Counted from the first letter of the stretch, positions 10,631 to 35,227 are shown. The stretch: DNA of 64,000 nucleotides from an uncultured bacterium (GCA_963695095.1 CAVOFT010000001.1:2368001-2432000); one strand, 5' to 3'. Numbers and translations: made by a program. The notes: generated by a model from the letters alone, not told the origin.

Positions 10631-11665
<1,035 letters not shown>

Positions 11666-13885: not shown

Positions 13886-13905
13886 GGAGTGCGCTGCGAA
13901 GGAAA

Positions 13906-15296: not shown

Positions 15297-15414
15297 CGCG
15301 CCCAACTTTGAGATATGCCGGAATTCCACCACCCCATTCCCCGACCCGCGACGCCCTCCGCCCTCGCCGCGAATTGCGCAACCCCGCATGGGGATTGGGC
15401 TGGAGCCATTGCAC

Positions 15415-17286: not shown

Positions 17287-18220
17287 TCAGGCCCCCTCTC
17301 GCCGCGTGCGCGGATCGATCCAGGCATAGCTGAGGTCGACGAGCAGGTTGACGAGCACGAAGGCCAGCGCCATCACGAGGATAGCGCCCTGGATGGCCGG
17401 CAGGTCGCGCTTGGCTACGGCATCGAGCGTGTAGCGGCCCAGGCCCGGCCAGGCGAAGATGCGTTCGGTGAGCACCGAGCCGCTGAGATAGCTGCCGAAG
17501 TCGTTGCCCACGACCGTCACCACGGGCAGCAGCGCATTGCGCAGCCCATGCACCAGGAGCACGCGGGCCGGGTGCAGGCCCTTGGCGCGCGCGGTGCGGA
17601 TGTAGTCCTGGCCCATCACGTCGAGCAGGGAGGCGCGGGTCATGCGGGCGATCAGGGCGGCCGAGGCGGTCCCCAGCGTCAGCGCGGGCAGGATCAGATG
17701 GCGCAGGCTGCCCTCGCCGTAGCCCGAGGGCGGCAGCCAGCGCAGCTGGAGCGAGAAGGCGATAGATGAGCACCATGCCCAGCCAGAAGACCGGCACCGA
17801 GATGCCCGCCGAGGCCAGCACCATGGCGCCGCGATCGAGGAGGGAGCCGGGCCGCAGCGCCGCCGCGACGCCCAGGCCCACGCCCAGCACGGTGGCGATC
17901 AGCATCGCCGCCAGGGCCAGGCGCAGGGTGTGGGGAAAGGTGGTCGCGATCGCCTCGCGCACCGGCTCGCGGGAGACATAGGAGACGCCCAGGTCGCCGC
18001 GGACGAGATCGGCCAGAAAGCGACCGTAGCGCAGGGGCAGCGGGTCGTCCAGGTGCAGCTCGGCCCGCAGCTCGTCGAGCACGGCCTCGTCGTAGCGCTC
18101 GCCGGCGACGGCCTGCACGGGGTCGCCGGGCACCACGTAGAGCAGCAGGAAGCTGAGGAAGGTCACCCCCAGCAGCACGGGCACCAGGGCCAGCAGTCTA
18201 CGAATCAGGAAGCGCCGCAT
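17287..18220 (-). CDS. dppB: Peptide ABC transporter permease, DppB/OppB type (frameshift near 17762)
   Basis: VPGDP, GDLGVS, SVPVFWLG, DYIRTARAKGL, DLSYAWIDPR. Confidence 0.9.
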
Positions 18221-19781
18221 CGCGTCGCAGCTCCAGGTAGTCCTGACCGTTGAAAATGAGGGGCGGCTGGTAGCCGGACAGGCCCGGCCCGAGCACCTCG
18301 AGCGAGACGGGGTGCCAGAGCCAGATCCAAGGCGCTTCGCGGTAGATCGTCTCGTTGAGGCGGTTCACCAGGCGCGCCCGCCCGGGGCCGGGCGGACTGG
18401 TCTGCAGCTCGTCGAGCAGAAGGTCCACGAAGGGCTCGGCGAAGGCGGCCCGGTTGCCGCCGCCGCCCAGGTTGCGCGAATGAAAGAGCGGCACCAGGAA
18501 GTTCTCCGCATCGGGATAGTCGGCCAGCCAATCGAGGAAGAAGGCATCGGCGCTGCCCTGGTTCACGGCGTCCTTGAAGGCGCCCCAGTCGCGCACGACG
18601 ATGCGCGCGGTGATGCCGACCTCGGCCAGGTAGGCCTGCACCGCTTCCAGCAGGCGGCTCACTTCCGGATTCTCCTTCTGCCAGATCTCCATGCTGAAGC
18701 CCTCCGCGTAGCCGGCTGCCGCCAGCAGCTCGCGGGCGCGCTCCGGCCGGTAGCGGAACTGCTCACCGGGATCCTCGCTGCGCAGCGCCGGCGGCACCGG
18801 CCCCAGGGAGCGCTGGGCGGCCTGGGCGCGCAGCGTGCGGATCAGCGCCTCGACATCGATCGCGTGATTGAGGGCCTGGCGCACGCGCAGATCGTCGAAA
18901 GGCGGCCGGCGCTGGTTGAGGCCGATGTAGGAGACGACCAGCTCCTCCTGCCGCAGCACCCGACCGCGCCGCTCGCCCGTCAGCCAGTAGTCGGCTTCGG
19001 CCAGGGGCACGCGGAGCAGGTCGAGATTGCCCACCTCGAATTCGGCAACCGCGGTGAAAGGCTGGGGGATGATGCGCAGCTCGAGCCGCTGCATGCTCCC
19101 GGGCGGCGCGGGCTCCCGGCGCTCGAGCAGGAAGCGATCGCCCTGATCCCAGCGCAGGAGCCGCCAGGGTCCGCCGGCGACCGGCAGCCCCCCCACGCGC
19201 AGGGGCCGGCCCGCCTCATCCTGCGGGTAGACACGCGTGGCCGGCATGGCCAGCAGGCCGAGGAAGGGACTGAAAGGGGCGGCCAGCTCGAGCACGAGCG
19301 TGCTGTCGTCGGGCGCCGTGAGGCCGGCCACATCGGTGGACAGGCCGTCGCGGAAGGCCCCCGCCCCGCGCAATCGCTCCAGCACCCAGCGCCGCGGCGA
19401 GGGCGACGCGGGATCGAGCAGGCGGCGGAAGCAGCCCCGCACGCGCCCGGCCGTGATCGGCGTGCCGTCGTCGAAGTGGCGGCCGGTCACGAGATGCAGG
19501 CGGTAGCGGCGGCCACCGGATTCCAGCTCCCAGCGCGCGACGAGGTCGGGCTGGGGCTGGCCCGCCGGATCGAAGCGGAAGAGCCCCGGATAGATGAGGG
19601 AAACCAGGGTGCCTGCGGTCTGATCGACGGCGAAGGCGGGATCCAGGCTCTGCGGCTCCTCCCCGAGATAGGCGCGGAAGCAGGCCGGGTCCGGCGGCTC
19701 GCCGCGGCCGCAACCGGCCGGTCCCGCGGCAAGCAGGGCGAGGAACACGGTGGCGGCGAGCGGCCGGGCGCGGCGTGGCAT
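18198..19781 (-). CDS. dppA: Peptide ABC transporter substrate-binding lipoprotein (family 5)
   Basis: Lipobox-like PAG-C, SLDPA, FDDGTPITA, PFDDLRVRQALNHAID, WLADYPDAENF. Confidence 0.9.
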   Translation of the reverse strand: MPRRARPLAATVFLALLAAGPAGCGRGEPPDPACFRAYLGEEPQSLDPAFAVDQTAGTLVSLIYPGLFRFDPAGQPQPDLVARWELESGGRRYRLHLVTGRHFDDGTPITAGRVRGCFRRLLDPASPSPRRWVLERLRGAGAFRDGLSTDVAGLTAPDDSTLVLELAAPFSPFLGLLAMPATRVYPQDEAGRPLRVGGLPVAGGPWRLLRWDQGDRFLLERREPAPPGSMQRLELRIIPQPFTAVAEFEVGNLDLLRVPLAEADYWLTGERRGRVLRQEELVVSYIGLNQRRPPFDDLRVRQALNHAIDVEALIRTLRAQAAQRSLGPVPPALRSEDPGEQFRYRPERARELLAAAGYAEGFSMEIWQKENPEVSRLLEAVQAYLAEVGITARIVVRDWGAFKDAVNQGSADAFFLDWLADYPDAENFLVPLFHSRNLGGGGNRAAFAEPFVDLLLDELQTSPPGPGRARLVNRLNETIYREAPWIWLWHPVSLEVLGPGLSGYQPPLIFNGQDYLELRRDAALPDS

Positions 19782-21049
19782 CAGCCGTTCATCACGCGCA
19801 GGAGGACGAAATCGCCAGCGCCGTGGCGGTCCTCGAAGACGTAGACCAGCCCGGCGCCCAGGTAGTACCAGTACTCGAGCTGGCGGAAGTTGCGGTCGTC
19901 CTCCACGAGCTCCGTGCGATCCGGAGCGCCGCGCTCCAGGTAGACCTGGCCCCGATCGCTGAGGTAGCCGTCGCGCTGGCCGGCCTCGAAGCGGGCGTTC
20001 GCCTCGCTCACGCGCTCGCAGAAATCTGCCAGGGCGCTGTTCTCGCCCCGGTCGCCGGCCGCCAGTCCTCGCCGGTCCCAGAAGGCCTGCCAGCGAGCCG
20101 CGCGTTCGGCGGCAGGGGCGGCCGCCAGCTCATCGCGCTCATCGGCGCTGGCCAGGGGCCGCAGGAGGCCCAGCGTGCGCTCCCACTCGCGGCCGAAGGC
20201 AGCCGGCGTCAGCCCCACGTCCAAGCGTCCGCGCAACTGGCGGCGCTCCTCGCCGGTCACCAGCTCGCAGTCGAGGCGGTAGACGCCCATCGCAAGTCTG
20301 GCCTGCGGGAGTTCCCAGGCCAGGCTGTGTCGGCCCGGCGGCAGCAGCAGCTCGCGCCGCGCATAGTAGAGCAGCTCGCCCCGCCGGTCCTCGAGGCTGA
20401 GCAGGAGTTCGCCCCGCAGTTCGCCCTCGCCCCAGTTGTGCACGTCGCAGGCGAGACCGATGGTCGCCGCGTCGCCGTCGGTGAAGCAGCTCACGGCGGC
20501 GGGGAGCCGCCAGGGGTCGTGAAAGAAAAAGGGCGGCGTCCGCTGCCCGCTGCCGCGGCCCGGAGCCCAGCGCGGGCCCTGGAGGAAGAGCGCACTGCTC
20601 GCCAGATCGGGCACCTCGAGCTCGAAGCGCTCGCGCCAGGGCTTGGCCTCGCCGCGGCTGTAGATGAGCGCCTCCACCCGCCACGCGCCGGGCCCCAGCG
20701 CCAGGCCGAAGCTGCGCCTGTAGTGCTCCTCGCGCCGGCGGCTGGCCGCGAAGTCGGGCACCGTGACCTCATCGTGCAGGAGCAGGTTGGCCTCCTCGCG
20801 GTCGCTGCGGCGCTCGGCGCGGCAGGCGATGCGCAGCCGGGCCGCGAAGCCCGCCCCGCTGCGCTCGAAGACGAGCTGCTCGTACGGAATCCGCAGCTCG
20901 AAGTCGAGGCGGGCGCCCCCGGAGTCGGGCAGGGAGAGGCTGTGATCGAGGCGGACGTCGCGTGGCAATTCCTCGCGCGCCCCGGCGAGCGCGAGCCCGG
21001 ACGAGACGACCAGCAGCATCAGGCCGGTGAGCGCGGTGCGCGATTGCAT
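19781..21049 (-). CDS. GWxTD-domain protein (exported)
   Basis: Signal peptide; C-terminal FWDRR...ERVSEANARF...GYLSDRGQVYLERGAPD...EYWYY. Confidence 0.82.
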   Translation of the reverse strand: MQSRTALTGLMLLVVSSGLALAGAREELPRDVRLDHSLSLPDSGGARLDFELRIPYEQLVFERSGAGFAARLRIACRAERRSDREEANLLLHDEVTVPDFAASRRREEHYRRSFGLALGPGAWRVEALIYSRGEAKPWRERFELEVPDLASSALFLQGPRWAPGRGSGQRTPPFFFHDPWRLPAAVSCFTDGDAATIGLACDVHNWGEGELRGELLLSLEDRRGELLYYARRELLLPPGRHSLAWELPQARLAMGVYRLDCELVTGEERRQLRGRLDVGLTPAAFGREWERTLGLLRPLASADERDELAAAPAAERAARWQAFWDRRGLAAGDRGENSALADFCERVSEANARFEAGQRDGYLSDRGQVYLERGAPDRTELVEDDRNFRQLEYWYYLGAGLVYVFEDRHGAGDFVLLRVMNG

Positions 21050-21159
21050 GCCCTGTCCATGGCGGCTGGAGCCGGCGGCACGCCGGCCCCGCTGTGAACA
21101 TTCAGCAAAGGGCGGCGGCTGTCCAGGGCAAAGTGGCGGTGCGCCTCGGCGCCGCTGGC

Positions 21160-21834
21160 CTAGCGGCGCTCGTCGCTCTCGATGCGGCCGTCGCGCAGGC
21201 GCAGGGAGCGGTGGGCATGAGCGGCGATCTCCGCCTCGTGCGTGACGAGGATCACCGTCTGTCCGCTCGCGTGCAGATGATCGAAGATGGACATGATCTC
21301 GTCACCCGTGCGCGTGTCGAGATTGCCCGTCGGCTCGTCGGCGAGCAGGATGGCCGGCTCGTTGACCAAGGCCCGCGCAATGGCAACGCGCTGGCGCTGG
21401 CCGCCGGACAGCTCGTTGGGCTTGTGGTGGGCGCGATCCTGCAGGGAGACCGCTGCGACGGCGGCCTCGACGCGGCGCCGCCGCTCGCCGGCGGGCAGGC
21501 CGGCGTAGACGAGCGGCAGCTCCACATTGTGATAGACGTCCGCCCGCGGCAGGAGATTGAAGGTCTGGAAAACGAAGCCGATCTGCCGATTGCGGATGCG
21601 CGCCAGCTCGTCGTCGCCCATTGCCGACACCCGCTCGCCGTCCAGCAGGTAGCTGCCGCTGCTCGGAGAGTCGAGGCAGCCGATGATGTTCATCAGCGTC
21701 GACTTGCCGGAGCCGGAGGGACCCATGATCGCCATGTACTCGTTGCGGGCGATGTCGAGGTCCACGCCGTCCAGGGCCCGCACTTCGCTCTGTCCGACGC
21801 GGTAGACCTTGGCCAGGGCGCGGATTTCGATCAT
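21160..21834 (-). CDS. ABC ATP-binding protein, MacB/LolD type
   Basis: [44 protein letters not shown]. Confidence 0.93.
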
Positions 21835-21845
21835 GGCGCAGCCCC

Positions 21846-23201
21846 CTAGTGCGCCAGGGTCCAGCCGGTGCTGCGCTCCAGCTCGGCCAGGGCCGTCAGG
21901 TAGCCGGCCACGCCTTCGATCTCGCTGGCGCGGCCCTGGACCAGGGATACCTCGGCTTCCGTCACCTCGAGCAGGGTCGCCGCGCCGACGCGGTAGCGCT
22001 CGCGCGCCAGGCGGAGGTCCTCCTCGGCAAGCGTAATCGTCGCTCTGGCGAGTTCGATGCGCTTGCGATTGTTCTCGAGGGTGACGAGGGTATTCTCGAG
22101 GCCCTGCGCAACGCCGCGCGCCTGCTGATCGATCGCGTACTCCCGCTGCCGGTAGCTGGCGCGCGCCTGTTGCACGCTGCGCTTGGTCTGGAAGCGGTCG
22201 AAGAGATCCCAGCTCAGCCCGACCGAGAGCGCGTAGCTGTAATCCTCGCTGAAGACGTCAAAGGCCCGATCCGGCGGGCTGAGATCGTACCAGCTGAAGC
22301 GGTAGCTGGCCCCCACGCTTGGCCAGAGGCCCGCTTGCGCCACGCGCAGGTTCTGGCCGGCTGCGGCGCTGCGCAGGCCGGCGGCGCGCAGGGTCGGGTC
22401 GTTGGCCAGGGCGGCCGCGAGCGCGGCATCGCGATCGACGGCGGCGAAGCTGGCGATCAGCGGGCCCTGGACACTGAGCGGCCCCTGCGTCTCCCGGCCG
22501 ATGAGAGTGGCCAGGGCGACCCGAGCCAGCGCCCAGCCGTTCTCCGCCTCGAGCAGTCCCAGGCGCGCTTCCGCCAGGCGCACGCCTGAGCGCAGCGTAT
22601 CGGAGCGTGCCACCGCGCCCATGGCGAAGGAGCGCCGGGTCTGCTCGTGCTGCTCGCTGCTCGCCTGCAGGCTGCTCTGCTTGAGCTCTACCAGCAGTTG
22701 CGCCTTGGCCAGCTCGTAATAGGCCCGGATGACCGCCGTCTCCACCTCATTGCGGGTGCGATCGAGATCGGCGGTGTCGGCGGCCAGCGAGTAGCGCTGC
22801 CCCCGCAGGGAGGCCCAGCGCGAAAAGCCGGCGAAGAGCGTGAGGTCGCCCGAGAGACTGAAGTTGTAGGTCTCGTAGTCGCGGCTCTGGATCGGATCCT
22901 GAACGAAGAACTGCTGTGTGATGGTGTTGTACTGCTGGCTGGCCGGCTTCGGACCGACGAACTGATGGCTGTAGGACAGGGAGGTCGCCAGGCTGGGCAG
23001 GAAACTGCCGTAGGCGCCGAGCAGGCCCGCGCGCGTGGAAATGAGCTGCTGCCGGGCCGTGGCCAGCTCCGGCGAATGGCGATAGGCCAGCTCCAGGCAC
23101 TGCTCCAGGTCCAATGTCTGCGCCGTGGCTCCCGGCGGCGCGAGCAAACAGGCAAGCAGCAAGACGAGGCAGCAGCACTGGCGCGCAAGGCGGCGAGACA
23201 T
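21846..23201 (-). CDS. TolC family outer-membrane protein
   Basis: Signal peptide, two outer-membrane-efflux repeats, [14 protein letters not shown]. Confidence 0.9.
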
Positions 23202-23306
23202 AGAGGGCACTCTCCCTTGGCTGGCGACCCCGGGCCTACGCGACAGCCCCTGCCGGGTTTCCCGGGGCCAGTCCCATCATGACACCCGAGCGGCGAGCCC
23301 GCGACG

Positions 23307-23335
23307 AAAAAAACGGGGGGCCGGGCGGCCCCCCG
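23307..23335 (-). terminator. Rho-independent terminator after tonB
   Basis: CGGGGGGCC-gccc-GGCCCCCCG followed by TTTTTTT. Confidence 0.85.
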
Positions 23336-23352
23336 CGCGGTCCTGGGTCCGC

Positions 23353-23982
23353 CTAGCGGCCACGGACCCGGAATTCGAAGGGGACGCTGATGGTGGTCTT
23401 CACGGGGACGTTCCGCTGCTTGCCCGGCTTGAATCGCCATTTCCAGGCCGCAGCGATGGCCTCGTCGACCAGGATCTGCGGCACGGAGCTGCTGAGCATC
23501 TGCACGTTGAAGACGTTGCCGCGCTCGTCGACGAAGATGAGCACCAGCACCACGCCCTCCATCTCGGCTTCGCGCGCCATTTCGGGATAGCGGGGCGCCT
23601 GGCGGTAAGTGGGCGCCGGCGCTTCATCGAAGGCATAGAACTGCTTGGGACCGCCGCCAAAAGCGGCCGAAACAGGCGGCGGGATGGCATCGATGTCCTC
23701 GAAGCTGGTGTCCTCGATCGTCTCCTCGTCGGATACCTCATCCGAGATCTCGATCTGCACCGGCACCTTCGGCATCTCGACTTCCTGCGGCGGCGGCGGG
23801 ATTTCGATGTCCGCGGGGATCTCGATGACTTCCAGGATCTCCTCTTCCAGCCTGTAGGGACTGCTCACGTACTGTGGCCAGAAAAGGAACATGGCCACCA
23901 CGAGGGCGAAGGTGGCCACGAGCGCATAGCGCACCTGCTTGGCGTAGCCCTGCTTGATGAACTGCTGAACGGTGATGACCAT
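23353..23982 (-). CDS. tonB: Energy transducer TonB
   Basis: N-terminal TM, Pro/Glu-rich linker, PRYPEMAREAEMEGVV, WRFKPG. Confidence 0.92.
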   Translation of the reverse strand: MVITVQQFIKQGYAKQVRYALVATFALVVAMFLFWPQYVSSPYRLEEEILEVIEIPADIEIPPPPQEVEMPKVPVQIEISDEVSDEETIEDTSFEDIDAIPPPVSAAFGGGPKQFYAFDEAPAPTYRQAPRYPEMAREAEMEGVVLVLIFVDERGNVFNVQMLSSSVPQILVDEAIAAAWKWRFKPGKQRNVPVKTTISVPFEFRVRGR

Positions 23983-23997
23983 GGCCGTTCTCCTGGG

Positions 23998-24411
23998 CTA
24001 CCGGGTTGCCGATTCGACGTCGCTGGAGAAGACGACGCGCACCGCATTGATGGCCTTCAGCTCTTCCATGATCGAGTTCATGACCTCGTAGCGAACGCGG
24101 CTATCCGCCTTGAAGGCCACCACGAGCAAGGGGTTCGACTCCATGCGGCGCTTCATCACCGCCTGGATATCCGGTAGATAAACCAGCTTGTCGTTGATGG
24201 ACACCCGCCCCTTCTGGTCCACCCAGATGTTGGCCAGCTGCTCGCTGCTCTGCTTCTTCGAAGCCTCGGCGCGGGGCAGCGTGACATCGAGGCCGTTCTC
24301 CTGCTTGAAGATGGTGGTTGCCATGAAGAAGATGAGCAGCAGGAAGACGATATCCCCCATCGTTGCGGTGGGGATACCCGGCGCCCGCTTCTTGGCCTTT
24401 TCGATGTTCAC
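23998..24411 (-). CDS. exbD: ExbD/TolR family protein
   Basis: MGDIVFLLLIFFM, FKAD. Confidence 0.92.
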   Translation of the reverse strand: MNIEKAKKRAPGIPTATMGDIVFLLLIFFMATTIFKQENGLDVTLPRAEASKKQSSEQLANIWVDQKGRVSINDKLVYLPDIQAVMKRRMESNPLLVVAFKADSRVRYEVMNSIMEELKAINAVRVVFSSDVESATR

Positions 24412-24419
24412 GGATCCCC

Positions 24420-24833
24420 CTAGCTGTCCGTCATCTTGATCGAGATCTTCTTGATCTGGGCCAACTTCAGCTCATCGAGGATGTCGATCATCACGCCGTA
24501 CTGGGCCTGGGGCGCGGTCTGGATGACGACGATGAGCTTGGGGTTGATGTCCTGGGCTTCCCTCGCGATGCGGCGCACTTCGCCGATCTTGGTCGGCAGC
24601 CCCTTCACCGTGATCGAGTTGTCCGCGTTCGCTTTGATCTCGAGGATGTTCTTGCGGCTGACCTGAGCCGCCTGGCCCGACTCGCCGCTGGGCAGCACCA
24701 GCGGCAGGCCCATGTCCTCGTTGAAGACCGTGCTCACGATGAAGAAGATCAGGAGCAGGAAGGAGATGTCGGCGACGGTCGCGTTGCCGATCTCGGGAGT
24801 CCCGCGCTTCTTCTTCCTGGCCAGCATGCCCAT
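24420..24833 (-). CDS. exbD: ExbD/TolR family protein (second copy)
   Basis: VADISFLLLIFFIV, YGVMIDILDELK. Confidence 0.92.
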   Translation of the reverse strand: MGMLARKKKRGTPEIGNATVADISFLLLIFFIVSTVFNEDMGLPLVLPSGESGQAAQVSRKNILEIKANADNSITVKGLPTKIGEVRRIAREAQDINPKLIVVIQTAPQAQYGVMIDILDELKLAQIKKISIKMTDS

Positions 24834-24857
24834 GGGGTCAACCTCCGCCTCGCTGGC

Positions 24858-25706
24858 CTAGAGCCCCAGCTCGGTCAGCTCGTTGATCAGCTCCGCACTG
24901 GTCTCTTCCATCTCCACGACGAAGCGGTCCACCTGAGCAGTGAAGTACGAGTGAAAGAGACTTGTGGGGATGGCGATGATCAGGCCGGCGGCCGTGGTGA
25001 TCAGCGCCTCGGCGATGCCCGAGGCCACGAGCTTGGCGCTGACCTGGTCAGCGGAGGCGATGGCCTCGAAAGCGTGGATCATGCCCGACACCGTGCCGAG
25101 GAAGCCGAGCATCGGCGCCACGACGACGACGGCCGCGATCGCCGCCAGGCCCCGCTCGAGGAAGGCCATCTCGATGGCACCTGCCGTGTCGATGGCCTTC
25201 TCCACGGCCTGCGGGCCGCGGGCCGTCTTGAGCAGGCCGGCGTGCAGGATGGCCGCGATGGGTCCTCGCGTGCGCTCGCAGGTGCGGATGGCCGCGTCCA
25301 CCCCCTCGCTGCGCAGGGACTTCTGGATGCCGTACATCAGCTTGCGCGTGTTGACGCGGGCGCGCGAGAGCGTCCACAGCCGCTCGAGCACGAAGACGAG
25401 CCCGACGATCAGGGAGATGAGCAAGGGCCACATGAAGGCGCCACCGTCGATGAACATCTGCCCCGAGCCCGAGCGGCCCAGGCGCGTGCCTCTGAACCAG
25501 GCCTCGAAGCCGCCTTCGGAGTAGTAGGCGGCGAAGGCCTCGGCAAGCCCGGTGGTGTCCGAGTCGGCCACGGCACCCGGGGCGATGCGATAAGCGGCCC
25601 CACTCGCTGCTGCACCGCTCTCCTGAGCCAGTGCCGGCAGGGCGATCAGCAGGGTGAGCATGCCGACGGCCAGGAGAGCCCACGAGAGACGCTTCCAGAT
25701 GTTCAT
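24858..25706 (-). CDS. exbB: MotA/TolQ/ExbB proton channel protein
   Basis: APMLGFLGTVSGMI, GIAEALITTAAGL; N-terminal signal peptide plus extension. Confidence 0.93.
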   Translation of the reverse strand: MNIWKRLSWALLAVGMLTLLIALPALAQESGAAASGAAYRIAPGAVADSDTTGLAEAFAAYYSEGGFEAWFRGTRLGRSGSGQMFIDGGAFMWPLLISLIVGLVFVLERLWTLSRARVNTRKLMYGIQKSLRSEGVDAAIRTCERTRGPIAAILHAGLLKTARGPQAVEKAIDTAGAIEMAFLERGLAAIAAVVVVAPMLGFLGTVSGMIHAFEAIASADQVSAKLVASGIAEALITTAAGLIIAIPTSLFHSYFTAQVDRFVVEMEETSAELINELTELGL

Positions 25707-25837
25707 CGATCCCTACTCCTTAATCAGCGTGAATGCCGTCCGGACCGAACCCGACCTGCGGGCAACCGTGGTACGGACTCCCTCATCGACTGCAAGTGCT
25801 TTGGCATGGCGGGTTTCAACGGACTCAAGGGCGTTTC

Positions 25838-25867
25838 ACTATAGTGACCGCCTCCAGGGCCTGTCAA
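25838..25867 (-). promoter_or_regulatory. Sigma70-type promoter for exbB-exbD-exbD-tonB
   Basis: TTGACA-18 nt-TATAGT. Confidence 0.7.
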
Positions 25868-25900
25868 CCCGAAAAGCGCCCGGCCAATGGCACCAACTCC

Positions 25901-27415
25901 TTAGAAATCAAAGTCCTCCGAGCGGTAACCGAGCGTGTAGTCGCCCGTGCCGCTGCGGTCCACAAAGATCAATTGCAGGCTCGGCCGGCGCAGATGCAGC
26001 CGCTGCTCAGGCAGCAGTGGACTGCCGCCGAACTCGTAGGTCCACACCTCGTAGGGCTCGCTGTCGTCGCCGAAGTTGATGGCGCTGCCCGTACCGATGG
26101 TGCCCAGGTCCCTGCCCAGCTCACTGCTGCGCTCGACGCCGGCATCCTGGGTGAAGTCCACGCCATAGGGTGAGATGCCCGGCTCGATCGCCGCTTCCCC
26201 GTGCAGGCCGCGCACGGCGTCGCTCAAGCCCGTGCGATTGAGCGGCATCGCCTCGCCCTCGATGCTGACCGGTTCCCCCAGCCGGATCAAGATGCGGCCG
26301 CGATCGCTGAGCGCTCCCGGGCGAAAGCCCGCGTAGCGCACCTGGGCCGCCACGAAGCGCTTCAGGAATTCGTCGTACACGGCGTTCTCCTCGGTGGCGG
26401 GATCCGGATCATGGCGCTTCCAGAAGGCCGCCATGACGGCCTCGCGCTCGGGCGCCGGCAGCCCCTGCCAGCGCTGGAACTCGTCACCCTTGAGGAAAAG
26501 CTGTGCTGCAATCGCCTGCTGCGCAAGCGCGGAAGGCGCTTCGGTCGACTCGCCAAGGATGCGCAGGCTGCAGTCGACACCGGTGCTGTCGATCTCGGGA
26601 CCGCGGGCCTCCAAATGCAGACGGTAGCCGCCGGGCGGCAGCTCGGTCAGCGGTAGGCGATAGCGCAGCGGCAAGGGCGCGCCGGCCTCGTACTTCCAGC
26701 CGCCCTGCTTCTCGAGGCGCAGAACGCCGCCGGCGTCGTGCAGGGTCAGCCGCAGGCCGATGTAAGCGCCTTGGGCCGAGTCCGGCGGCAGGAAGGCCGT
26801 CTCCAGCTCCATCGCCGGGGTGCCGCCGGCGAAGACGCCGCTGGGACTCAGGGCGCCGCGCTCGCCGGCGATCGGAGCCCAATAGAGGAGTGGGTCGCCC
26901 AGGCCGCCCGCGCTGAAGTCCCGAGCGGTGAGGGTCGTGCTGAGAGCGGCCTCCGGCTGGCGTCCGAAGAGACCGGCGACGCCGCCGATCCGGCGCCCCG
27001 CGTCGCGGCACTCCAGCTCGAGCCGGTACTCGCCGGGCGGCACCGCCACCGATCGCAGGTAGAGCATGGTGGTCAGGGGAGTCCGCACGTCGCGCGAGAA
27101 GTCCAGACGCTCCTCCACGGCCGCCGCTTGGTGGCCCAGCGCATGCAGCGACCAGCGGCAGGCCAGGTGGGCCACGAGGCTATCGCCCTGCTGGCTCCAG
27201 GCCAGCTCCGCGGCGGGGAATTCCACGACGAGCAGGAGCCGGGTCAGGCCGGCCGGTGCAGGCTCGCTGTAGCTCTGGGCGGAGAACTCGAAATCCCCGC
27301 GCCCCGGGGGCAGCGGCCGCCCCAGCGCCGGCATCACCGATGCAAGCAGCAGGGCCGCCAGCAAAGCCGACCGCCGGCTCTCCCTTCCTCTCGCTGCCCT
27401 GGGCGCTCCGCTCAC
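25901..27415 (-). CDS. GWxTD-domain protein (exported), second paralogue
   Basis: Signal peptide; FWKRHDPDPATEEN...RFVAA...GALSDRGRILIRLGEP...YEVWTY...FVDRSGTGDY. Confidence 0.82.
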   Translation of the reverse strand: MSGAPRAARGRESRRSALLAALLLASVMPALGRPLPPGRGDFEFSAQSYSEPAPAGLTRLLLVVEFPAAELAWSQQGDSLVAHLACRWSLHALGHQAAAVEERLDFSRDVRTPLTTMLYLRSVAVPPGEYRLELECRDAGRRIGGVAGLFGRQPEAALSTTLTARDFSAGGLGDPLLYWAPIAGERGALSPSGVFAGGTPAMELETAFLPPDSAQGAYIGLRLTLHDAGGVLRLEKQGGWKYEAGAPLPLRYRLPLTELPPGGYRLHLEARGPEIDSTGVDCSLRILGESTEAPSALAQQAIAAQLFLKGDEFQRWQGLPAPEREAVMAAFWKRHDPDPATEENAVYDEFLKRFVAAQVRYAGFRPGALSDRGRILIRLGEPVSIEGEAMPLNRTGLSDAVRGLHGEAAIEPGISPYGVDFTQDAGVERSSELGRDLGTIGTGSAINFGDDSEPYEVWTYEFGGSPLLPEQRLHLRRPSLQLIFVDRSGTGDYTLGYRSEDFDF

Positions 27416-27473
27416 CGGTCACTCCCTCGCGGGTCCGCCGCGCCTGCACAGCGGCTGCTCAGGACCGCCCCGC

Positions 27474-28406
27474 CTAGTAGGCGAAGCTCACGCTGAAACG
27501 GTGCGCCCCGCCAAGGTAGGACAGGTCCTCGAAGGCATAATCGACGAAGAGCCGCGAGCGCTCGCTCGTGCTCACCGCGACGCCGAAGCCGGCGGCGACG
27601 CCGCTGGCGTCATAGCCGGCGTTGTAGCCGCCACGCAGGAAGAGGAAGCGGTTGAAGCTGTACTCGGCACCGAGATTCGCCCGCTCCTTGTTGTCCGGCG
27701 GATGGCTGAACTCCACGCTGCTGATCATGTGATGCGGCCCGCTGTCGAAGGCATCCGCAGACAGCCCCACCTTGAACATGATCGGCATCTTGGCGCCCTG
27801 CGAGTCGAAGTCCACCTCGCCACCGGCATTCTGCACCACCATGCCCAGACGCATCCCCTGGATGCCGATCCGGTAGACGAGACCGAAATCGAAGGCCGAT
27901 GTGTTGACGGCCTTGTCGGCCAGCCCCATGTGGATGAAGTGCACGGTCACGCCGGTGGAGAAGCGCTCGGTGAAGTACTGCGCATAGGTCAGGCCGAAGC
28001 TCATGTCCCCCGCGTCGAACTCGCGGCCCGTGCCGTCGGGCAGGTAGATCGTGCGCTCGACCTGGGGGTCCATCGTCAGCGCGCGGGCGGTGATGCCGAG
28101 CACGCCGGGCAGATAGGGCGTCCGGAAGGCATAGGAGACGAAGTCGAGCTTGATGTCCGCCGGCCATTCGACGTGGTTCAGGTGCAAGGCCGTGCGCGGC
28201 ACATCGACCAGCCCTCCCGGATTCCAGTAGGTGGCGCTGGCGTCATCGGCGACGGCGACGAAACCGTTGCCCATGCCCGCCGCGCGAGCGGTGGGCCCGA
28301 TCTTGAGGAACTGAGCGCTGAAGGTGCCGACCTTTTCGAAGATCTGCGCCTGCGCGACCCCAGCGATCAGGATGAGGGCCATGGTCAGCAGCGCTGTGCG
28401 TTTCAC
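27474..28406 (-). CDS. PorV/PorQ family (FadL-like) outer-membrane barrel
   Basis: Signal peptide, QFLKIGPTARAAGMG..VAVADDASATYWNPGGL, LRGGY, DYAF, terminal HRFSVSFAY. Confidence 0.85.
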   Translation of the reverse strand: MKRTALLTMALILIAGVAQAQIFEKVGTFSAQFLKIGPTARAAGMGNGFVAVADDASATYWNPGGLVDVPRTALHLNHVEWPADIKLDFVSYAFRTPYLPGVLGITARALTMDPQVERTIYLPDGTGREFDAGDMSFGLTYAQYFTERFSTGVTVHFIHMGLADKAVNTSAFDFGLVYRIGIQGMRLGMVVQNAGGEVDFDSQGAKMPIMFKVGLSADAFDSGPHHMISSVEFSHPPDNKERANLGAEYSFNRFLFLRGGYNAGYDASGVAAGFGVAVSTSERSRLFVDYAFEDLSYLGGAHRFSVSFAY

Positions 28407-28457
28407 GTTCTACCTCCCGCAAGATCCCTTGCTCGAGTCCGGCTCCGTCGGGGCCGA

Positions 28458-30983
28458 CTAGCGAATGACGATGAACTTGCCGACCTTCCGGTCGAAACCG
28501 TCGGCCTCCACGGAGAAGATGTACACGCCGCTGGCCACGTCCTGGCCGTTGCGGCTCACCAGATCCCAGGCGGCGGTGCCCGTCGATGCGTAGTTGCCCG
28601 TGGCGATGGCCGCCACATTGTCGTGGACGATCTCCTTCACCAGATCGCCCGCCAGCGTGTAGATGCGGATCTTGCAGCGGGCCGCCGGCAAATGGCGGAA
28701 TTCGACCTTGAGCCCCGTCGGATCGTCGTTGTTCGGATTCAGCGCCCAGGGCGCCATCGAGGTCGGCGTCGCCGGATTCGGCACCACGTAGACCTCGTCC
28801 GCATTGTAGGACCAGACCGGCTGGCTCTCGCTCTGCGGCACCGTGTAGACGAAGCCGCTGGATGGGTCCCCCGACAAGCCCGTCGCGTAGCCGATGAGGA
28901 CGCCGTTCTGGAAGACCCGGATGTGGTCCATCGCCGTGACCGAATAGAAGTAGTGCATGCCCGTGTGGACGCGATCGTCCTCGTAGCGATAGTAGACCTT
29001 GCCGCCAGGCAGGCCGAGCTGGGTCTTGGCCAAGGCGATCGCCGTATCGCCTGCGGCCAGCGTGTAACCCGTGGGCGGCAGCAGCTCCCGCGCCGACTGG
29101 ATGCTCGGGTTCTCCATCAGCGCATCGGCATAGAAGGCGAGCAGCGAAGCGTCGACGTTGGGCTGGTAGCGCAGGCTCTCGAGGCCGGTGTCGGCGCCCA
29201 GCTCATTCTGGAGATCGAACTCGGCCAGCAGCATCCACAGGTCGGTGCTGGGCCCGTTGGCGATCGAGGAACCGAAGGGGCGGTCCCAGTTGTCGGCGCG
29301 CCAGACGCGATAGCCCTCGAAGTCGTAGATGAGCTCGCTGACATCGGGGATCGTCTCGCTGAAGTTGTCCCAGAAGAGCACGTTCTTGCCCTCGGTGGGC
29401 CAGATGCGCAGGTTGGGCGGTGGCGGCGGCGAGCCGTAAAGCCAGTTGATCTGCCGCTCCAGGCCGTCATTGCCCGTGCACCACCAGGCGTCGGTGCCGG
29501 GTACGGCGCCGGGCTGGCAGAGGGCATTGGCCTCGTTCTCGAAGATGCAGTCGTCGTTGACCCAGACGCGCGTGCCCTTGGTGACGAGGATGGGCGGCGA
29601 CAGCGTATCGCAGGGGCTCGCCCACTCGATGTCGTTGAAGGGATCGTAGAGCAGGGTCTCGGCGCAGTAGGCGGTGGGATCCGGCGTATTGATGTCCCCG
29701 TCGAGGTTGAACCAGTTGCCGTCGTAGGTGAGCTTGGCCTGGGCGGCGTTGTCGAGCAGTCCCTCCCGGCCGAGGCCGACGACAAAGGCCACCTGGAATT
29801 TCAGGCTGTCACCCGACTCGACGAGGAAGGGTCCCGCCGACAGCAGCATGCGGAAGTCGCGCGGCACGTTGGGCTTCTTGTCGCTGGTCTCGGCGCTCAT
29901 CAGGGCGTAGCGCTGCTCGTCATTGGTGGGATCGCCGCCGTCCTCGAAGGAGGCGCTGCCGCTGAAGGCCTGCCAGGAGCGCAGGGTGACGCGGGGCGGC
30001 GCCTTGACCCCGGCCGGGTCGATCGTGTGGCCCATGAACATGATGCCGATCTGGCCCAGGGCCGGCGAATCGCCGTCGAGATCGCCGTCCTGGTCGAAGG
30101 CGACGCCCATCGCGTACTTGACCGGGATCTCGAAGGCGCCCTTGGTGACGCAGGCCGTGGCGTCGACGACGTCGACCAGGTCGTCATCGAAGTTGTTGGG
30201 CCGGCTGCGCGCGCCGACGTCGGGATCGGCGAAGAAGCCCAGGTAGAAGTCCTCCAAGGTCGCCTCGCCGATGTTGTAGATGGTGAATTCGACACCGACG
30301 AAGTCGTCCACGCGGTCGTTCTCCCACTGGTAGCTCTCCTGGACGACGAAGAGGTTCAGGGGCTGGTGGTCCGCGGACTGGGCGTAGCTCTCGGGCAGGT
30401 CGTCCCGGTAGGTGCAGTGGAACATCTGGTTGGAGATGGCCGCGTAGTCCTCGTCGATCGCGCCATCGCCGTCGTCGTCGAAGCCGTTGAGGGGATCCTC
30501 GTCGATCTTGCCGTCGTTGTCGTCGTCAGCGGCCGGCGAGGGCAGCCGGTTGCCGTTGCGTGTCCCCTCGAAGCTGCGGTAGAGCGTGTAGATGGGCTCG
30601 ATGCCGGGACGGAACTCCCAGAGGCCCCAGTCGCTGGTGGAGACGCGCGGGATGCCCGAGACCCGAGCGCCGCACCACAGGCCCGCGCCCCAGAGGTACT
30701 CGACGCCGCTGCCGGCCGGCCACTGGGCAGAAGGCGACTCGGCCATCGCGAAGCCGGAGTTCGGATAGGAGCCGAAGACACCGAAGTTGGTGATGTTCAT
30801 CTGCAGCTCGCCCACGTTGTGGACGAAGGTGCCGTCGATCATGAGGGTACCGTTTCCATTCAGCGGGGCCTGCGCGGCTCCGGCTGGCAGCGCCTGGCGG
30901 GCGGCCGCAGGCAGCGCGAAGACGAGCAGGCAAAGGCCGGCCCCGAGCAAGCGCGCTGAGGTCCCCTTGATCAGTGCGGACAT
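28458..30983 (-). CDS. Secreted 841-aa protein with DxDxDG repeats, an FN3-like domain and a T9SS-CTD-like (FlgD-Ig type) C-terminus
   Basis: Signal peptide; C-terminal VYVVPNP...IRIYTLAGDLVKEI...WDLVSRNGQDVASGVYIFSV...GKFIVIR. Confidence 0.8.
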   Translation of the reverse strand: MSALIKGTSARLLGAGLCLLVFALPAAARQALPAGAAQAPLNGNGTLMIDGTFVHNVGELQMNITNFGVFGSYPNSGFAMAESPSAQWPAGSGVEYLWGAGLWCGARVSGIPRVSTSDWGLWEFRPGIEPIYTLYRSFEGTRNGNRLPSPAADDDNDGKIDEDPLNGFDDDGDGAIDEDYAAISNQMFHCTYRDDLPESYAQSADHQPLNLFVVQESYQWENDRVDDFVGVEFTIYNIGEATLEDFYLGFFADPDVGARSRPNNFDDDLVDVVDATACVTKGAFEIPVKYAMGVAFDQDGDLDGDSPALGQIGIMFMGHTIDPAGVKAPPRVTLRSWQAFSGSASFEDGGDPTNDEQRYALMSAETSDKKPNVPRDFRMLLSAGPFLVESGDSLKFQVAFVVGLGREGLLDNAAQAKLTYDGNWFNLDGDINTPDPTAYCAETLLYDPFNDIEWASPCDTLSPPILVTKGTRVWVNDDCIFENEANALCQPGAVPGTDAWWCTGNDGLERQINWLYGSPPPPPNLRIWPTEGKNVLFWDNFSETIPDVSELIYDFEGYRVWRADNWDRPFGSSIANGPSTDLWMLLAEFDLQNELGADTGLESLRYQPNVDASLLAFYADALMENPSIQSARELLPPTGYTLAAGDTAIALAKTQLGLPGGKVYYRYEDDRVHTGMHYFYSVTAMDHIRVFQNGVLIGYATGLSGDPSSGFVYTVPQSESQPVWSYNADEVYVVPNPATPTSMAPWALNPNNDDPTGLKVEFRHLPAARCKIRIYTLAGDLVKEIVHDNVAAIATGNYASTGTAAWDLVSRNGQDVASGVYIFSVEADGFDRKVGKFIVIR

Positions 30984-31016
30984 GATGCGTCCTTTCTCGC
31001 AGCCTGGCGCCGGGCG

Positions 31017-34000
31017 CTAGAACTCGAAGCCAAAGCCGATGCGGAAGATCCGCCGCGGTTCGAAGACCCGCGGGTCGTCCACCGGGTGGAATTCGTCCTC
31101 GCCGTCGCCATCGAGGTCGGTCAGATAGGCGCCGCCGTACTGGCCGGTCTCCGTCAGATAGTAGGTGTAGGCGTTCTGCGCGTAGCGGAGGCCGGGGAAG
31201 ATGCCTGGGTCGTGGGCGTTGATCTGATCCTGGTCCAGCAGGTTGCGGCCGTCGAAGAACAGCGTCAGATCCTGGCCCCAGACGTTGAAGTACTTCTCCG
31301 CCTGCAGCGAAAGGCTGTGCGTGGCCGGGTAGCGGCGGCTGTTCTCGAGCTCGGGATCCTGGCGCCGGATGTAGCGGAAGGCCGGCGTGTAGGGGAAGCC
31401 CGAGCCGAAGCTATAGATCACCGAGCCGCCCCAGCTGCCCGGATCGGCCAGCCGCAGCGTCGCCGAGAGCGAGTGGCGCTCGTCCCAGCCCAGGGGCAGT
31501 TCCTTGGTGGGCAGGTGGGTCAGGCCCGCGGCGCTCGTGGCGCCGAAGGTCGCATCGGAGGCGACGCCGTCGGCATAGCTCAGCGTGTAGGCGACCTGGC
31601 CGCCGTAGTTGTCGGCGAACTGCCGGCTCAGCGTGATCTCCACGCCGCGCGCCGAGGCGTAGGCCTTGTTGATGTAGCGGCCGAACTGGTTGCCGCTGAT
31701 GGTGTCGATGGCGGTCGCCGAGGAGATGAGGTCGAAGATGTCCTTGTAGAAGATGGCGAAGTCGCCCACCACGTGCTCCGTGAACTGGTGCTTGACGCCG
31801 GCCTGGTAGGAGATCGTGATCTCGGGATCGAGATCCGGGTTGCCGAGCAGGCCCACGCCCGCATTCGGGTCCTGGGTCTGGAAGAGGTAGTTGTTGGCCG
31901 GAGCCTGGATGAAGCGTCCGTAGTGGAAGTGGAACACGTCCCGGTCGGTGATCGGGAAGGCCAGGCCCAGGCGCGGGCTCAGCGACTGCTTGAAGCGCCG
32001 GATCGTCGGGTCGACACCCTGGGCGCGCAGCAGCACCTCGACGCCGGAGCCCGGGCTGAAGAGGTCGTAGCGCAGGCCGCCGTTGACGACCATGCCCCGG
32101 TACTCCCAGCGATCCTGGATGTAGAAGGCGGTCTGCGGCGCGTAATTGTGGAAGATGTTCGCGCTGGTGCCCTGGCCCGTGCCCAGCACCCGCCCCGTCT
32201 GGTCGTCGATGAGGATGCGCGTGCGCCCCGGCGATGTCAGCTGCTCGTTGTACATGTCGTTGTACTGGGCGAGGTAGCCGGTCTTGATCTTGTGGCCCGC
32301 GGCCTGGCTGGTGAGGTCGAACTTGAGGATCCAGCTCACGGACTGGCGATCGAAGTAGGTCGGATAGTCATAGGCCGAAGCCAGGAAGGGATTCTCGGGG
32401 TCCGTGTAGTAGATCTCCCCGGCCACCGAGCGCACCGTGGCGCCGTTGTGCAGGGTGGCGGGCTGCCCCGCGGTCTCGTACTCCGTGGGCGACTTGTCGC
32501 CGACGGCGCTATGGCGCTTGAAGTCCAGCCGCGTCAGGGCGAACTTGTAATAGACCTTTTCGCTGATGTTGTGGATGGCCACGAACTTCACGCTGTTCGT
32601 GAAGTTGTCGCTCGAGGTCGTGTGCTCGGCGGAGTTGTAGTAGGCCTGCGAGGAGTCGTCCTGGACGTAGCTCCAGCGGCTGAGCGTGTCGATGAAGCCG
32701 TCGAACAGCTCGTCCGTGAGCACGAGGAATTCGGTGCCCGAATAGGCGCTCCTGACGCGCATCGCATCCGCGACCTCGTAGACATTCGCGCCGGCCCCCG
32801 AGGGCTTGTACTTGATGAGCACCTTCTCGAAGCTGGTGGGCAACCCCTGGCGCTGCTTCTCCTTGTTGGCCAGATAGGTGTCGTACCAGGGGCCATGCAG
32901 CACGGGCATGGTGCCGCGGACGACGTAGAAGTAGTGGTCGCCCTGCGTGTCGGACTCGCCGCTCAGCTCGATGCGCTCGAACATGTGCAGGCGATTGACG
33001 TAGCCCTCCTGGTTCCAGTTGTGGATGTAGGGATCGTTCTTGTCCCAGGCGGCGCTGCTCTCGAGGTTCAGCTTGAGATCCTGATTGAGCTTCCAGGTCA
33101 GCTTGTTCTGCAGGTTCAAGCCGGCGTCGGCGCGGTCCTTGAACTTGAAGAGCCCGTTCATCGCCGTCCACTGCTCGCGGCGATCGCGCGTGAGATCCTC
33201 GCCGTCGCTGCCTTCGGCTTCCGCCGAGAGGAACCAGCGGAAGTCCTCGCTGAGGAGTGGCCCGCCGATGCCCACGGCCAGGCGATCGTAGTTCGTGTAG
33301 GTCTTATCCTGGCGGCCGTAGTCGTCCGTCCAGTAGCGCAGGGAGCCTTCGAACTGGCTGCCGCCCTCGCGGGTGACGATGTTGAAGACCGCCGACTGGG
33401 CATTGCCGAATTCGGCGTCCATGCCGCCGATAACGGCCTCGGCCTCGGCAACCGCGACATTGGAGACCTGCACCGCGCCGCCCAGGGGGTCATTCACGGG
33501 CACGCCGTCGATCATCATCGAGACTTCGCCGGAGCGGCCGCCGCGCACGTAGAGGTCGCCGCCCTTCATCGTGATGCCGGCTTCGAGGGCCATCGCCTCC
33601 TGCACGTTGTCCACGGCGAAGGCGTTGAGGTCTTCCTGATCCTTCGATTTCTTCGACTCGGAGGTCTTCACGTCGACGAGGGGCGCCTCCCCCTCGACGA
33701 TGAAGGTCTTCTCGGCGAGGGCCACGCCCTGCTTGAGCTCGAAGTCGATGTTGACGGTCTTCTCGCTGCTCACCGCCACGCCCTCGCGGCGGCTCGACTC
33801 GTAGCCGAGGTAGGTGGCCACGATGGTATAGGTGCCGGCGGGCAGCACGAACTGGAAGCTGCCGTCCTCCAGGGTCATGGCGCCAAAATTGGTGCCCTCG
33901 ACGACCACATTGGCCGCAAGCAAGGGCTCGCCCGTCTGCTGGTTGACGACCTGGCCGCGGACGGTGCCCGGAGATTGGGCCGCGGCGAGCGCAGGAACAA

Positions 34001-34067
34001 GGAGCAGGCTCAGGAGTAGGCTGGCGGCGAACCAGCGACGACCGTTCATGAGGGTCCCCCTAGGCAT
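31017..34067 (-). CDS. TonB-dependent receptor with N-terminal carboxypeptidase-regulatory-like domain
   Basis: GTVRGQVVNQQTGEPL, plug YVRGGRSGE..IDGVPV, GGMDAEFGNAQSAVFNIVT, NGGLRYD, GNPDLDPE, terminal GFGFEF. Confidence 0.92.
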   Translation of the reverse strand: MPRGTLMNGRRWFAASLLLSLLLVPALAAAQSPGTVRGQVVNQQTGEPLLAANVVVEGTNFGAMTLEDGSFQFVLPAGTYTIVATYLGYESSRREGVAVSSEKTVNIDFELKQGVALAEKTFIVEGEAPLVDVKTSESKKSKDQEDLNAFAVDNVQEAMALEAGITMKGGDLYVRGGRSGEVSMMIDGVPVNDPLGGAVQVSNVAVAEAEAVIGGMDAEFGNAQSAVFNIVTREGGSQFEGSLRYWTDDYGRQDKTYTNYDRLAVGIGGPLLSEDFRWFLSAEAEGSDGEDLTRDRREQWTAMNGLFKFKDRADAGLNLQNKLTWKLNQDLKLNLESSAAWDKNDPYIHNWNQEGYVNRLHMFERIELSGESDTQGDHYFYVVRGTMPVLHGPWYDTYLANKEKQRQGLPTSFEKVLIKYKPSGAGANVYEVADAMRVRSAYSGTEFLVLTDELFDGFIDTLSRWSYVQDDSSQAYYNSAEHTTSSDNFTNSVKFVAIHNISEKVYYKFALTRLDFKRHSAVGDKSPTEYETAGQPATLHNGATVRSVAGEIYYTDPENPFLASAYDYPTYFDRQSVSWILKFDLTSQAAGHKIKTGYLAQYNDMYNEQLTSPGRTRILIDDQTGRVLGTGQGTSANIFHNYAPQTAFYIQDRWEYRGMVVNGGLRYDLFSPGSGVEVLLRAQGVDPTIRRFKQSLSPRLGLAFPITDRDVFHFHYGRFIQAPANNYLFQTQDPNAGVGLLGNPDLDPEITISYQAGVKHQFTEHVVGDFAIFYKDIFDLISSATAIDTISGNQFGRYINKAYASARGVEITLSRQFADNYGGQVAYTLSYADGVASDATFGATSAAGLTHLPTKELPLGWDERHSLSATLRLADPGSWGGSVIYSFGSGFPYTPAFRYIRRQDPELENSRRYPATHSLSLQAEKYFNVWGQDLTLFFDGRNLLDQDQINAHDPGIFPGLRYAQNAYTYYLTETGQYGGAYLTDLDGDGEDEFHPVDDPRVFEPRRIFRIGFGFEF

Positions 34068-34205
34068 GGCGCTGCGCTCCCTTCAGTCTTCGGCGCTCCT
34101 CAGCAGCAGGCCGGGCCAGCCAAGAGCCGGGCGGGGCTGGCTGCGGCAAAAGCCTTGGCGCTGCGAATCACCGATCGATGGGGGGAATTCAGCCTGGTCG
34201 TGGTT

Positions 34206-34231
34206 AATGTAGGGATTGGCAAGGGCTTGAG

Positions 34232-34235
<4 letters not shown>
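34206..34235 (-). promoter_or_regulatory. Candidate promoter for the TBDR operon
   Basis: TTGACT-18 nt-TACATT; the -35 box overlaps the dppF stop. Confidence 0.55.

Positions 34236-35223
<988 letters not shown>

Positions 35224-35227
<4 letters not shown>

Follow-up and report, generated by a model that had tools for sequence, protein, structure and literature searches.

What kind of envelope device is encoded where the gene of a TonB-dependent receptor (TBDR) stands directly before that of a secreted protein bearing a C-terminal type IX secretion system (T9SS) domain? The question is raised by a stretch of 64,000 nucleotides (nt) from an uncultured bacterium, called here the window, which corresponds to C1:2368001-2432000 of a 3.64-Mb, two-contig genome that is 93.5% complete. 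Eleven genes at 19781..34067, all on the minus strand, encode in order of transcription the TBDR, a protein of 841 amino acids (aa) designated below as the partner, an outer-membrane barrel of the PorV/PorQ family, a first GWxTD protein, ExbB, two ExbD proteins, TonB, a TolC-family channel, an ABC (ATP-binding cassette) ATPase and a second GWxTD protein (Table 1). An original prediction had announced this order, which coordinates and family matches confirm, and had proposed two functions for it: either the barrel tethers the partner beside the TBDR, independently of SusD, or the Ton-energised TBDR itself exports the partner. The analysis found an all-or-none pairing of TBDR and barrel beside the partner's family, and three paralogous triads in this genome. 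The reading that we favor, in which we place about as much trust as doubt, is that the T9SS exports the partner, which its own PorQ-like barrel then keeps next to the TBDR, and that the unit takes up a glycan-like ligand with no SusD involved.

The first four genes are tightly spaced. Computed from gene coordinates, the gaps are 33 nt between TBDR and partner, 51 nt between partner and barrel and 58 nt between barrel and GWxTD 1, in line with the approximately 30 to 60 nt announced for these co-oriented genes. The next gap, before exbB, measures 194 nt; the Ton genes are spaced by 24, 8 and 15 nt; tonB and tolC are separated by 142 nt, and gaps of 11 nt (tolC-ABC) and 110 nt (ABC-GWxTD 2) follow. 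A consensus scan found a near-perfect promoter-like site inside the 194-nt gap and a strong hairpin directly after tonB. Because of this promoter-like site and this terminator-like hairpin, the array suggests three transcription units rather than one: the four-gene core, the Ton motor, and TolC-ABC-GWxTD 2. In describing a single envelope system of eleven genes, the original prediction was right about the array and too wide in its boundaries, the Ton genes being set apart by these signals and TolC and the ATPase probably being pump parts. All secreted members of the array carry signal peptides, and both barrels end on an aromatic residue. A dip in GC content (0.64-0.67 versus 0.72-0.74) had raised the idea of a foreign origin; it was rejected, as the third-position GC of the eleven genes (0.86-0.96) is at the level of that of neighboring genes and nearly all genomes of the phylum have the module.

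The TBDR opens with a signal peptide and comprises a CarboxypepD_reg domain (62.8-64.2 bits), a Plug (PF07715, 31.4 bits) and a large beta barrel (PF00593, 88.2 bits; all Pfam) closing on an aromatic residue (C-terminus ...GFGFEF), and so belongs among true receptors of this class. It falls outside the SusC/RagA family, whose model TIGR04056 fits only its N-terminal 125 residues at 47.4 bits against a cut-off of 368.25. A profile search of the genome found no SusD_RagB, the control in B. thetaiotaomicron being positive. Three of the nine Plug matches in the genome adjoin a PorV-family barrel: that of the window and those of two further loci, L021 (C1:286500-306400; triad at L021:1422-11980) and L022. 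The window's TBDR, barrel and partner each have their best paralogues at L022 and then at L021, in identical rank order (tblastn of the genome, with no limit on high-scoring segment pairs per contig). The TBDR scores 152+148 bits at L022 and 125+124 bits at L021, the next TBDR reaching 48.5; the barrel scores 141 and 127 bits, the PorU-linked PorV reaching 62.8; and the partner scores 77.8+62.0 and 66.6 bits, a stand-alone copy at 801 bits not being counted. The three partners also appear to share one long tail subtype: a profile of the window partner's tail scores 53.6 and 49.3 bits, over the full tail length, on the two other triad partners, and 170.9 bits on the stand-alone paralogue. Because the best paralogues of all three proteins coincide at two loci in one rank order, and because the tail subtype is common to them, the sequences indicate that the triads arose by duplication of the whole unit.

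At L021, the triad is preceded by a CBM9-like protein and followed by a glucoamylase-like protein (PF10091) with a T9SS tail, which looks like a sugar-utilisation context. A frame of 1980 aa at this locus was considered as a fusion of TBDR and cargo and rejected: it holds two genes, that of the TBDR and that of a separate tailed protein of 1089 aa, which opens with a signal peptide at residue 892.

The pairing extends beyond this genome. We kept 66 related loci with 76 copies of the partner family. For 41 of these copies both flanks could be judged: a TBDR upstream and a barrel downstream accompany 15, none has only one of the two, and 26 have neither. Where at least 6.6 kb of sequence extend beyond the barrel (13 loci), genes for GWxTD, ExbB, two ExbD, TonB, TolC and ABC follow in the same order in 12; at the 13th, L096, an extra partner copy is inserted, and the TolC and ABC genes are still there. 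Such conservation of order is far beyond chance. SprA, the T9SS translocon, was detected in all 61 phylum genomes searched (at least 90% complete). Outside the window's family the barrel is the best-kept part, with 54-65% identity over complete matches versus about 42-47% for the TBDR, and its orthologues are 48-91% identical among the matches listed across the phylum sample. In a quick tree of the partner family, with branch support from the Shimodaira-Hasegawa-like approximate likelihood ratio test only, module-linked copies group together, along with a few recent duplicates, and 28 stand-alone or unjudged copies form a separate clade. An apparent spread to other phyla was rejected, as the metagenome-assembled genomes labelled Latescibacteria, Chitinivibrionia or Patescibacteria turned out to be genomes of the phylum sample itself. 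Look-alike clusters are recorded for Eiseniibacteriota in the Atlas.

What joins partner and barrel may be the partner's tail. The barrel is a member of the PorV/PorQ family (NF033709, 185.6 bits for a cut-off of 90, spanning positions 3-325 of a 326-position model), and its profile matches the solved PorV of F. johnsoniae (6h3i_F, E 1.9e-25). It stays below the cut-offs of both equivalogs, with 80.9 bits on PorQ (NF033711, cut-off 220) and 63.9 bits on PorV (NF033710, cut-off 250). When the barrel was modelled with partner residues 722-841, the complex scored 0.93 in three runs, and none of three controls exceeded 0.00; agreement of the contacts was at least 97%, and the partner's pLDDT was at least 81. 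The mark of the tool is reached by 116 of 157 solved complexes and by 2 of 215 mismatched pairs, counts that hold roughly here, own alignments having been used. The predicted interface includes partner residues 732-746, the very stretch that marks the long tail subtype. The partner's tail is thus predicted to be bound by the barrel, in an interface of the kind that the original prediction proposed to model.

The partner itself consists of a signal peptide, a galactose-mutarotase-like beta-supersandwich (about residues 41-580; structure model with a pLDDT of 73.2), further beta domains and a long-type T9SS C-terminal domain (approximately 722-841); its N-terminus is without lipoprotein signal. 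A VIA structure search aligned 265 residues to 9ju0 (Z 19.4, root mean square deviation 3.5) and gave Z 18.7 to 1lf6. As modelled, the supersandwich is similar to domains that lie, without catalytic function, at the N-terminus of glucoamylases and sugar phosphorylases, and none of the listed VIA matches reaches into an enzyme's catalytic domain. An acidic, D-rich insert at about 130-180, whose motif is invariant in an alignment of 34 sequences, looks like a calcium site. A Pfam scan found no family on the partner. Its residues 727-841 match the tail of the PorZ model NF052228 at 33 bits against a cut-off of 260, which places it outside the full-length PorZ family. The tail models PF18962 and TIGR04183 do not list it at E 0.01 or better, and some of its homologues carry PF13860. 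The profile built on its tail also matches some 30 C-terminal domains of other proteins of the genome, at a weak 14-26 bits. The partner has at least 709 relatives, none of them named, and 481 relatives in the species-genome collection. Its stand-alone paralogue, with nearly the same tail, lies at C1:3110478-3112850 (L102), where no TBDR or barrel is nearby, and among the related loci stand-alone copies often occur in tandem pairs. One may speculate that such paralogues could share a single barrel as exchangeable heads.

Does the host possess the machinery that such a tail calls for? The statement that the window lacks sprA, porU, porKLMN and susD is true and, for sprA, misleading: the gene lies at C1:2432871-2439425 (L028:871-7425), 0.9-7.4 kb past the window end and next to rimP, and its product scores 423.7 bits, or 532.5 with in-frame neighbors, against a cut-off of 200. 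PorU was found at C1:2160338-2163721 (438.4 bits against 420), adjoining a PorV-family gene; its model has 51 matches in the genome, most of them on tail positions near 1000-1080. PorV-family genes occupy ten loci, and at seven the family cut-off is exceeded. Eight stand directly downstream of a large secreted protein, with a Pfam tail domain on three of these proteins; of the others, one is the PorU-linked copy and the second lies behind a sigma-54 activator. Only in the PorU-linked paralogue does the PorV score exceed the PorQ score (120 versus 54.2 bits). Judged by SprA, PorU and PorV, a canonical T9SS is present in the host genome. For the PorKLMN motor and ring, the genome gave no match to GldL, GldM and GldN (TIGR03517, PF12081, TIGR03513, TIGR03523), with models that exceeded their cut-off in no control genome and whose sensitivity is unproven; GldM was likewise found in 0 of 41 phylum genomes, with a model that has no positive control. 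GldK matched only below its cut-off (84.1 bits against 350), in its FGE-sulfatase part only. This FGE-sulfatase gene was considered as part of a gldLMN-type operon and rejected, its neighbors being citrate synthase and a frame like ribosomal protein L3. No canonical PorZ was found in the genome, the best match (47.5 bits against 260) concerning tails only.

These elements can be assembled into a sequence of steps. The core would be a four-gene operon of TBDR, partner, barrel and GWxTD protein. The signal peptide would take the partner across the inner membrane, and the partner's long-type C-terminal domain would then direct it out through SprA, the ordinary translocon of the T9SS. It would not be released: the C-terminal domain would stay on the dedicated PorQ-like barrel, as that of PorZ does on PorQ, which would give the partner a surface position beside the TBDR. 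There its supersandwich, of a sugar-binding type and with acidic, probably calcium-binding loops, would capture a glycan-like ligand, and the TBDR would import this ligand with energy from the adjacent ExbB-ExbD-ExbD-TonB motor, which is apparently transcribed separately. Such a device would be a counterpart of SusC/SusD that lacks SusD. The GWxTD protein would be an accessory, and TolC and the ABC ATPase would lie outside the device. The genes with their families and conserved order, the presence of SprA, PorU and PorV and the class of the fold are shown, and the contact of tail and barrel is predicted; of the steps, we infer retention of the tail, contact with the TBDR, the nature of the ligand and the direction of transport. 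The tethering proposed in the original prediction gains from the predicted binding of tail and barrel, the all-or-none pairing, the three paralogous triads and the absence of SusD from the genome.

Several observations weigh against this reading. Foldseek against the PDB gave the partner only low-TM matches (TMq of about 0.2 or less), and its fold, as modelled, reveals no ligand. The complex prediction may have passed through likeness to solved PorV-substrate structures and not through binding by this particular pair. Since 26 of the 41 judged copies have no TBDR or barrel beside them, proximity to these is not a requirement of the partner family. The neighboring motor need not be dedicated to the unit, since the genome has eight MotA/ExbB loci and nine TonB_C matches. 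The proposal leaves the role of the GWxTD protein unexplained, and the triads at L021 and L022 are without one, the genome having three GWxTD proteins of which two are in the window locus. Finally, the barrel has a match in 200 of 201 phylum genomes at E 1e-20 or better (187 at 1e-90 or better), and this near-universality, together with the position of the array in a housekeeping region (mreBCD, glycine cleavage system, PNPase, infB, rimP), fits a core role in the envelope no less well than a nutrient system.

This last point leads to the alternative that survives best, which we nevertheless hold to be rather unlikely: the trio would be the phylum's counterpart of PorF, PorZ and PorQ, a late-stage unit of the T9SS in which the PorU sortase receives a glycan or glycolipid anchor from the partner, with the TBDR serving that step. 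In P. gingivalis, the TonB-dependent-receptor-like protein PG0534/PorF is described as needed for T9SS function (PMC5445135), and a porF mutant, as reported in PMC12704123, resembles porQ and porZ mutants, with beige colonies and a loss of about 90% of gingipain activity; the role proposed there for PorF is import of a glycan for A-LPS (anionic lipopolysaccharide) or for its linkage. The higher score of our barrel on PorQ than on PorV, the likeness of the partner's tail to that of PorZ, the lack of a canonical PorZ in the genome and the near-universal presence of the module alongside SprA in a housekeeping region all agree with such a role. On the other hand, the partner's modelled fold is a supersandwich, matched best in structure by sandwich domains from sugar enzymes; two more paralogous triads exist, one of them in a sugar context, whereas a single machine part is not expected to multiply; and the preference for PorQ over PorV is common, wherever either equivalog matched, to all PorV-family paralogues except the PorU-linked one.

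The genes might also be neighbors without joint function, the partner being an ordinary surface adhesin or enzyme on its own barrel, and TBDR, GWxTD, Ton and TolC genes merely sharing an old, stable stretch of core genome. The large-scale order of this housekeeping region is conserved: SprA and the module's barrel share a contig, at a distance of 35-75 kb, in many genomes from several families, which probably reflects conserved core-genome order and not an operon link. The signals that suggest at least three transcription units, and the fact that most PorV-family paralogues adjoin large secreted proteins without a TBDR, point the same way. We judge this explanation unlikely in view of the gaps of 33-58 nt in the four core genes, the all-or-none pairing of TBDR and barrel, and the duplication of TBDR, partner and barrel together, which gave three triads.

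In this phylum, SprA, PorU and PorV occur without detectable PorKLMN, and the near-universal module, with its own motor, a PorF-like TBDR and a PorZ/PorQ-like pair, might even be the missing energy-coupling or completion unit of type IX secretion, with a Ton-type motor in place of the GldLM motor; we find this doubtful. Export of the tailed partner by the Ton-energised TBDR, with the PorV-like barrel as its receiver, is highly improbable: such export is unnecessary because SprA, PorU and PorV are in the genome and SprA is in all the phylum genomes searched, dozens of other proteins are tailed and the partner's tail is weakly but consistently like these ordinary T9SS tails, and the 26 copies with the same kind of tail but no adjoining TBDR speak against it, although it is not strictly refuted, given that TBDR Oar is described as required for PopC secretion in Myxococcus xanthus (PMC6434023), that a Ton motor adjoins, and that the T9SS as found is incomplete.

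How do the other genes of the array relate to the favored capture-and-import unit? GWxTD 1 has a signal peptide, two Ig-like beta sandwiches and a C-terminal helical/GWxTD domain (model pLDDT 79.7). Its sandwich 169-288 resembles the carbohydrate-binding domain of Wzt (Z 12.7, root mean square deviation 2.1, 107 residues aligned); its structural matches are only generic Ig-like sandwiches, and the C-terminal domain is unplaced. It follows the barrel at every locus with a complete barrel match, three loci ending inside or at the barrel. Both GWxTD proteins of the array belong to the TIGR04514 family. GWxTD 2 was found only in the window's nearer relatives (L036-L043), where it occupies the place of a MacA-like adaptor in other families. 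A third GWxTD-like frame, at C1:1668212-1669849 on the minus strand, matches parts of the profile in a different order. The term GWxTD was found in no paper of the literature searched.

ExbB, the two ExbD proteins and TonB, encoded by adjacent genes with clear family matches (Table 1), constitute a Ton-type motor, and ExbB is 53-80% identical across full-length arrays, with lower values confined to two loci whose sequence stops within the gene. The number of motor genes for nine Plug matches in this genome seems high, which is an impression. One further locus, L024 (C1:1813300-1833200, about 2416-17453, minus strand), combines a PorV-family barrel with a Ton-type motor and no TBDR, in the order 2336-aa tailed protein, PorQ-like barrel, 998-aa tetratricopeptide repeat (TPR) protein, ExbB, ExbD and 446-aa TonB_C protein; it could be a Tol-Pal-like cluster or be related to the T9SS.

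TolC follows tonB in the related loci as well. In the window no complete MacAB-TolC pump is encoded at the locus, which has TolC and the ATPase and neither permease nor adaptor. Elsewhere in the phylum, all 7 of the loci found in other families have a MacA-like adaptor after the ABC ATPase, and a MacB_PCD+FtsX permease comes after the adaptor in the one other-family locus checked. Because other families keep adaptor and permease after the ATPase, TolC and the ATPase probably belong to a MacAB-TolC-type pump and not to the device, and the window's family would have lost the adaptor and the permease from this place. The best adaptor homologue of the genome is at C1:995874-997101.

Known systems provide precedents for the parts. 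PorZ, whose body is a beta-propeller, keeps its C-terminal domain. Our barrel is, like PorQ, of the PorV/PorQ family (NF033709) and is predicted to bind the partner's tail; unlike PorZ, the partner has a supersandwich body and matches the PorZ model in the tail only, and the partner and barrel genes are adjacent here and joined to those of a TBDR and a GWxTD protein. Association of a T9SS-exported surface protein with a barrel of the PorV/PorQ family is reported for PorQ-PorZ and PorV-PorU of the P. gingivalis attachment complex (PMC10947112). PorP is described as binding type B tails and holding cargo on the surface without A-LPS (PMC12704123); as in the PorP/SprF family, the cargo gene here is followed by that of its own anchoring barrel, but this barrel is of the PorV/PorQ family, the tail is of another type and a TBDR is added. 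PorF is comparable by its description as a TonB-dependent-receptor-like barrel tied to late T9SS steps with PorQ and PorZ; its gene is not reported to lie beside porZ or porQ. Oar and PopC likewise link a TBDR and a Ton motor to a secreted protein; in contrast, all genomes searched in the phylum have the T9SS translocon, and the tail of the secreted protein is of T9SS type. With SusC/SusD-type pairs, RagAB, BtuB-BtuG and XusA-XusB, the module shares a CarboxypepD_reg-type TBDR that adjoins the gene of a surface protein with a binding-type fold, and the TBDR has just one solved relative by sequence, 9gbc_A (E 3.4e-10, residues 29-260), an entry that appears to come from a Bacteroides iron-piracy study. 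The differences are the lack of SusD in the genome, a TBDR outside the SusC model, and a partner that has no lipoprotein signal and would be held by a barrel through its T9SS tail.

Our literature search found no paper describing the module, which agrees with the statement in the original prediction that no experimental description was known to it; precedents concern parts of it (PorQ-PorZ, PorP with type B cargo, PorF). The term 'PorV2' matched only a citation mark in PMC10994853. If the reading that we favor is true, bacteria outside the Bacteroidota build SusCD-like capture-import devices from a different kit, namely a T9SS-exported partner on its own PorQ-like barrel instead of a lipoprotein, which would widen both the purposes served by the T9SS and the routes by which a TBDR acquires a surface partner. 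The module would then also offer a genomic handle on PorF, as TBDR, tail-bearing surface protein (predicted to remain on its barrel) and PorQ-like barrel are here encoded by physically linked genes. Because it is present in nearly every genome of an uncultured phylum, it is likely to be central to the envelope biology of that phylum.

Table 1. Genes and putative signals of the array (positions in the window)
Feature	Position	Strand	Evidence
Weak promoter-like site, 9/12, upstream of TBDR gene	34206..34235	-	consensus match only
TBDR, 1016 aa	31017..34067	-	Pfam PF13620/PF13715, PF07715, PF00593
Partner, 841 aa	28458..30983	-	no Pfam family; tail matches PorZ model tail
PorV/PorQ-family outer-membrane barrel, 310 aa	27474..28406	-	NF033709
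GWxTD protein 1, 504 aa	25901..27415	-	TIGR04514, 59.9 bits vs cut-off 28
Promoter-like site TTGACA-18-TATAGT, 11/12	25838..25867	-	consensus match only
ExbB, 282 aa	24858..25706	-	PF01618, 110.6 bits
ExbD, first copy	24420..24833	-	PF02472, 74.4 bits
ExbD, second copy	23998..24411	-	PF02472, 78.6 bits
TonB, 209 aa	23353..23982	-	PF03544, 74 bits
Terminator-like hairpin, 10 pairs (9 G-C) + T run	23313..23336	-	consensus match only
TolC-family channel	21846..23210	-	PF02321, 203.3 bits
MacB/LolD-type ABC ATPase	21160..21834	-	NF007826, ATPase part only, 247.5 bits
GWxTD protein 2, 422 aa	19781..21049	-	TIGR04514, 60.5 bits vs cut-off 28

As for expression, no RNA dataset was listed for window positions 25800-34300, and nine DNA runs contained 0.05-0.11 of the sampled words. 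The array is flanked by oligopeptide-transporter genes (window 15491-18220 and 34232-36225), with ATPases upstream and a binding protein and permeases downstream. A frame of 909 aa in this flank, where two permease matches occur together with matches to SH3 and NlpC/P60, probably overlies several genes. In another family, the upstream neighbors of the array are V-type ATPase genes. Between the module and SprA, a TPR protein of 1264 aa is encoded at window 44419-48213 on the minus strand.

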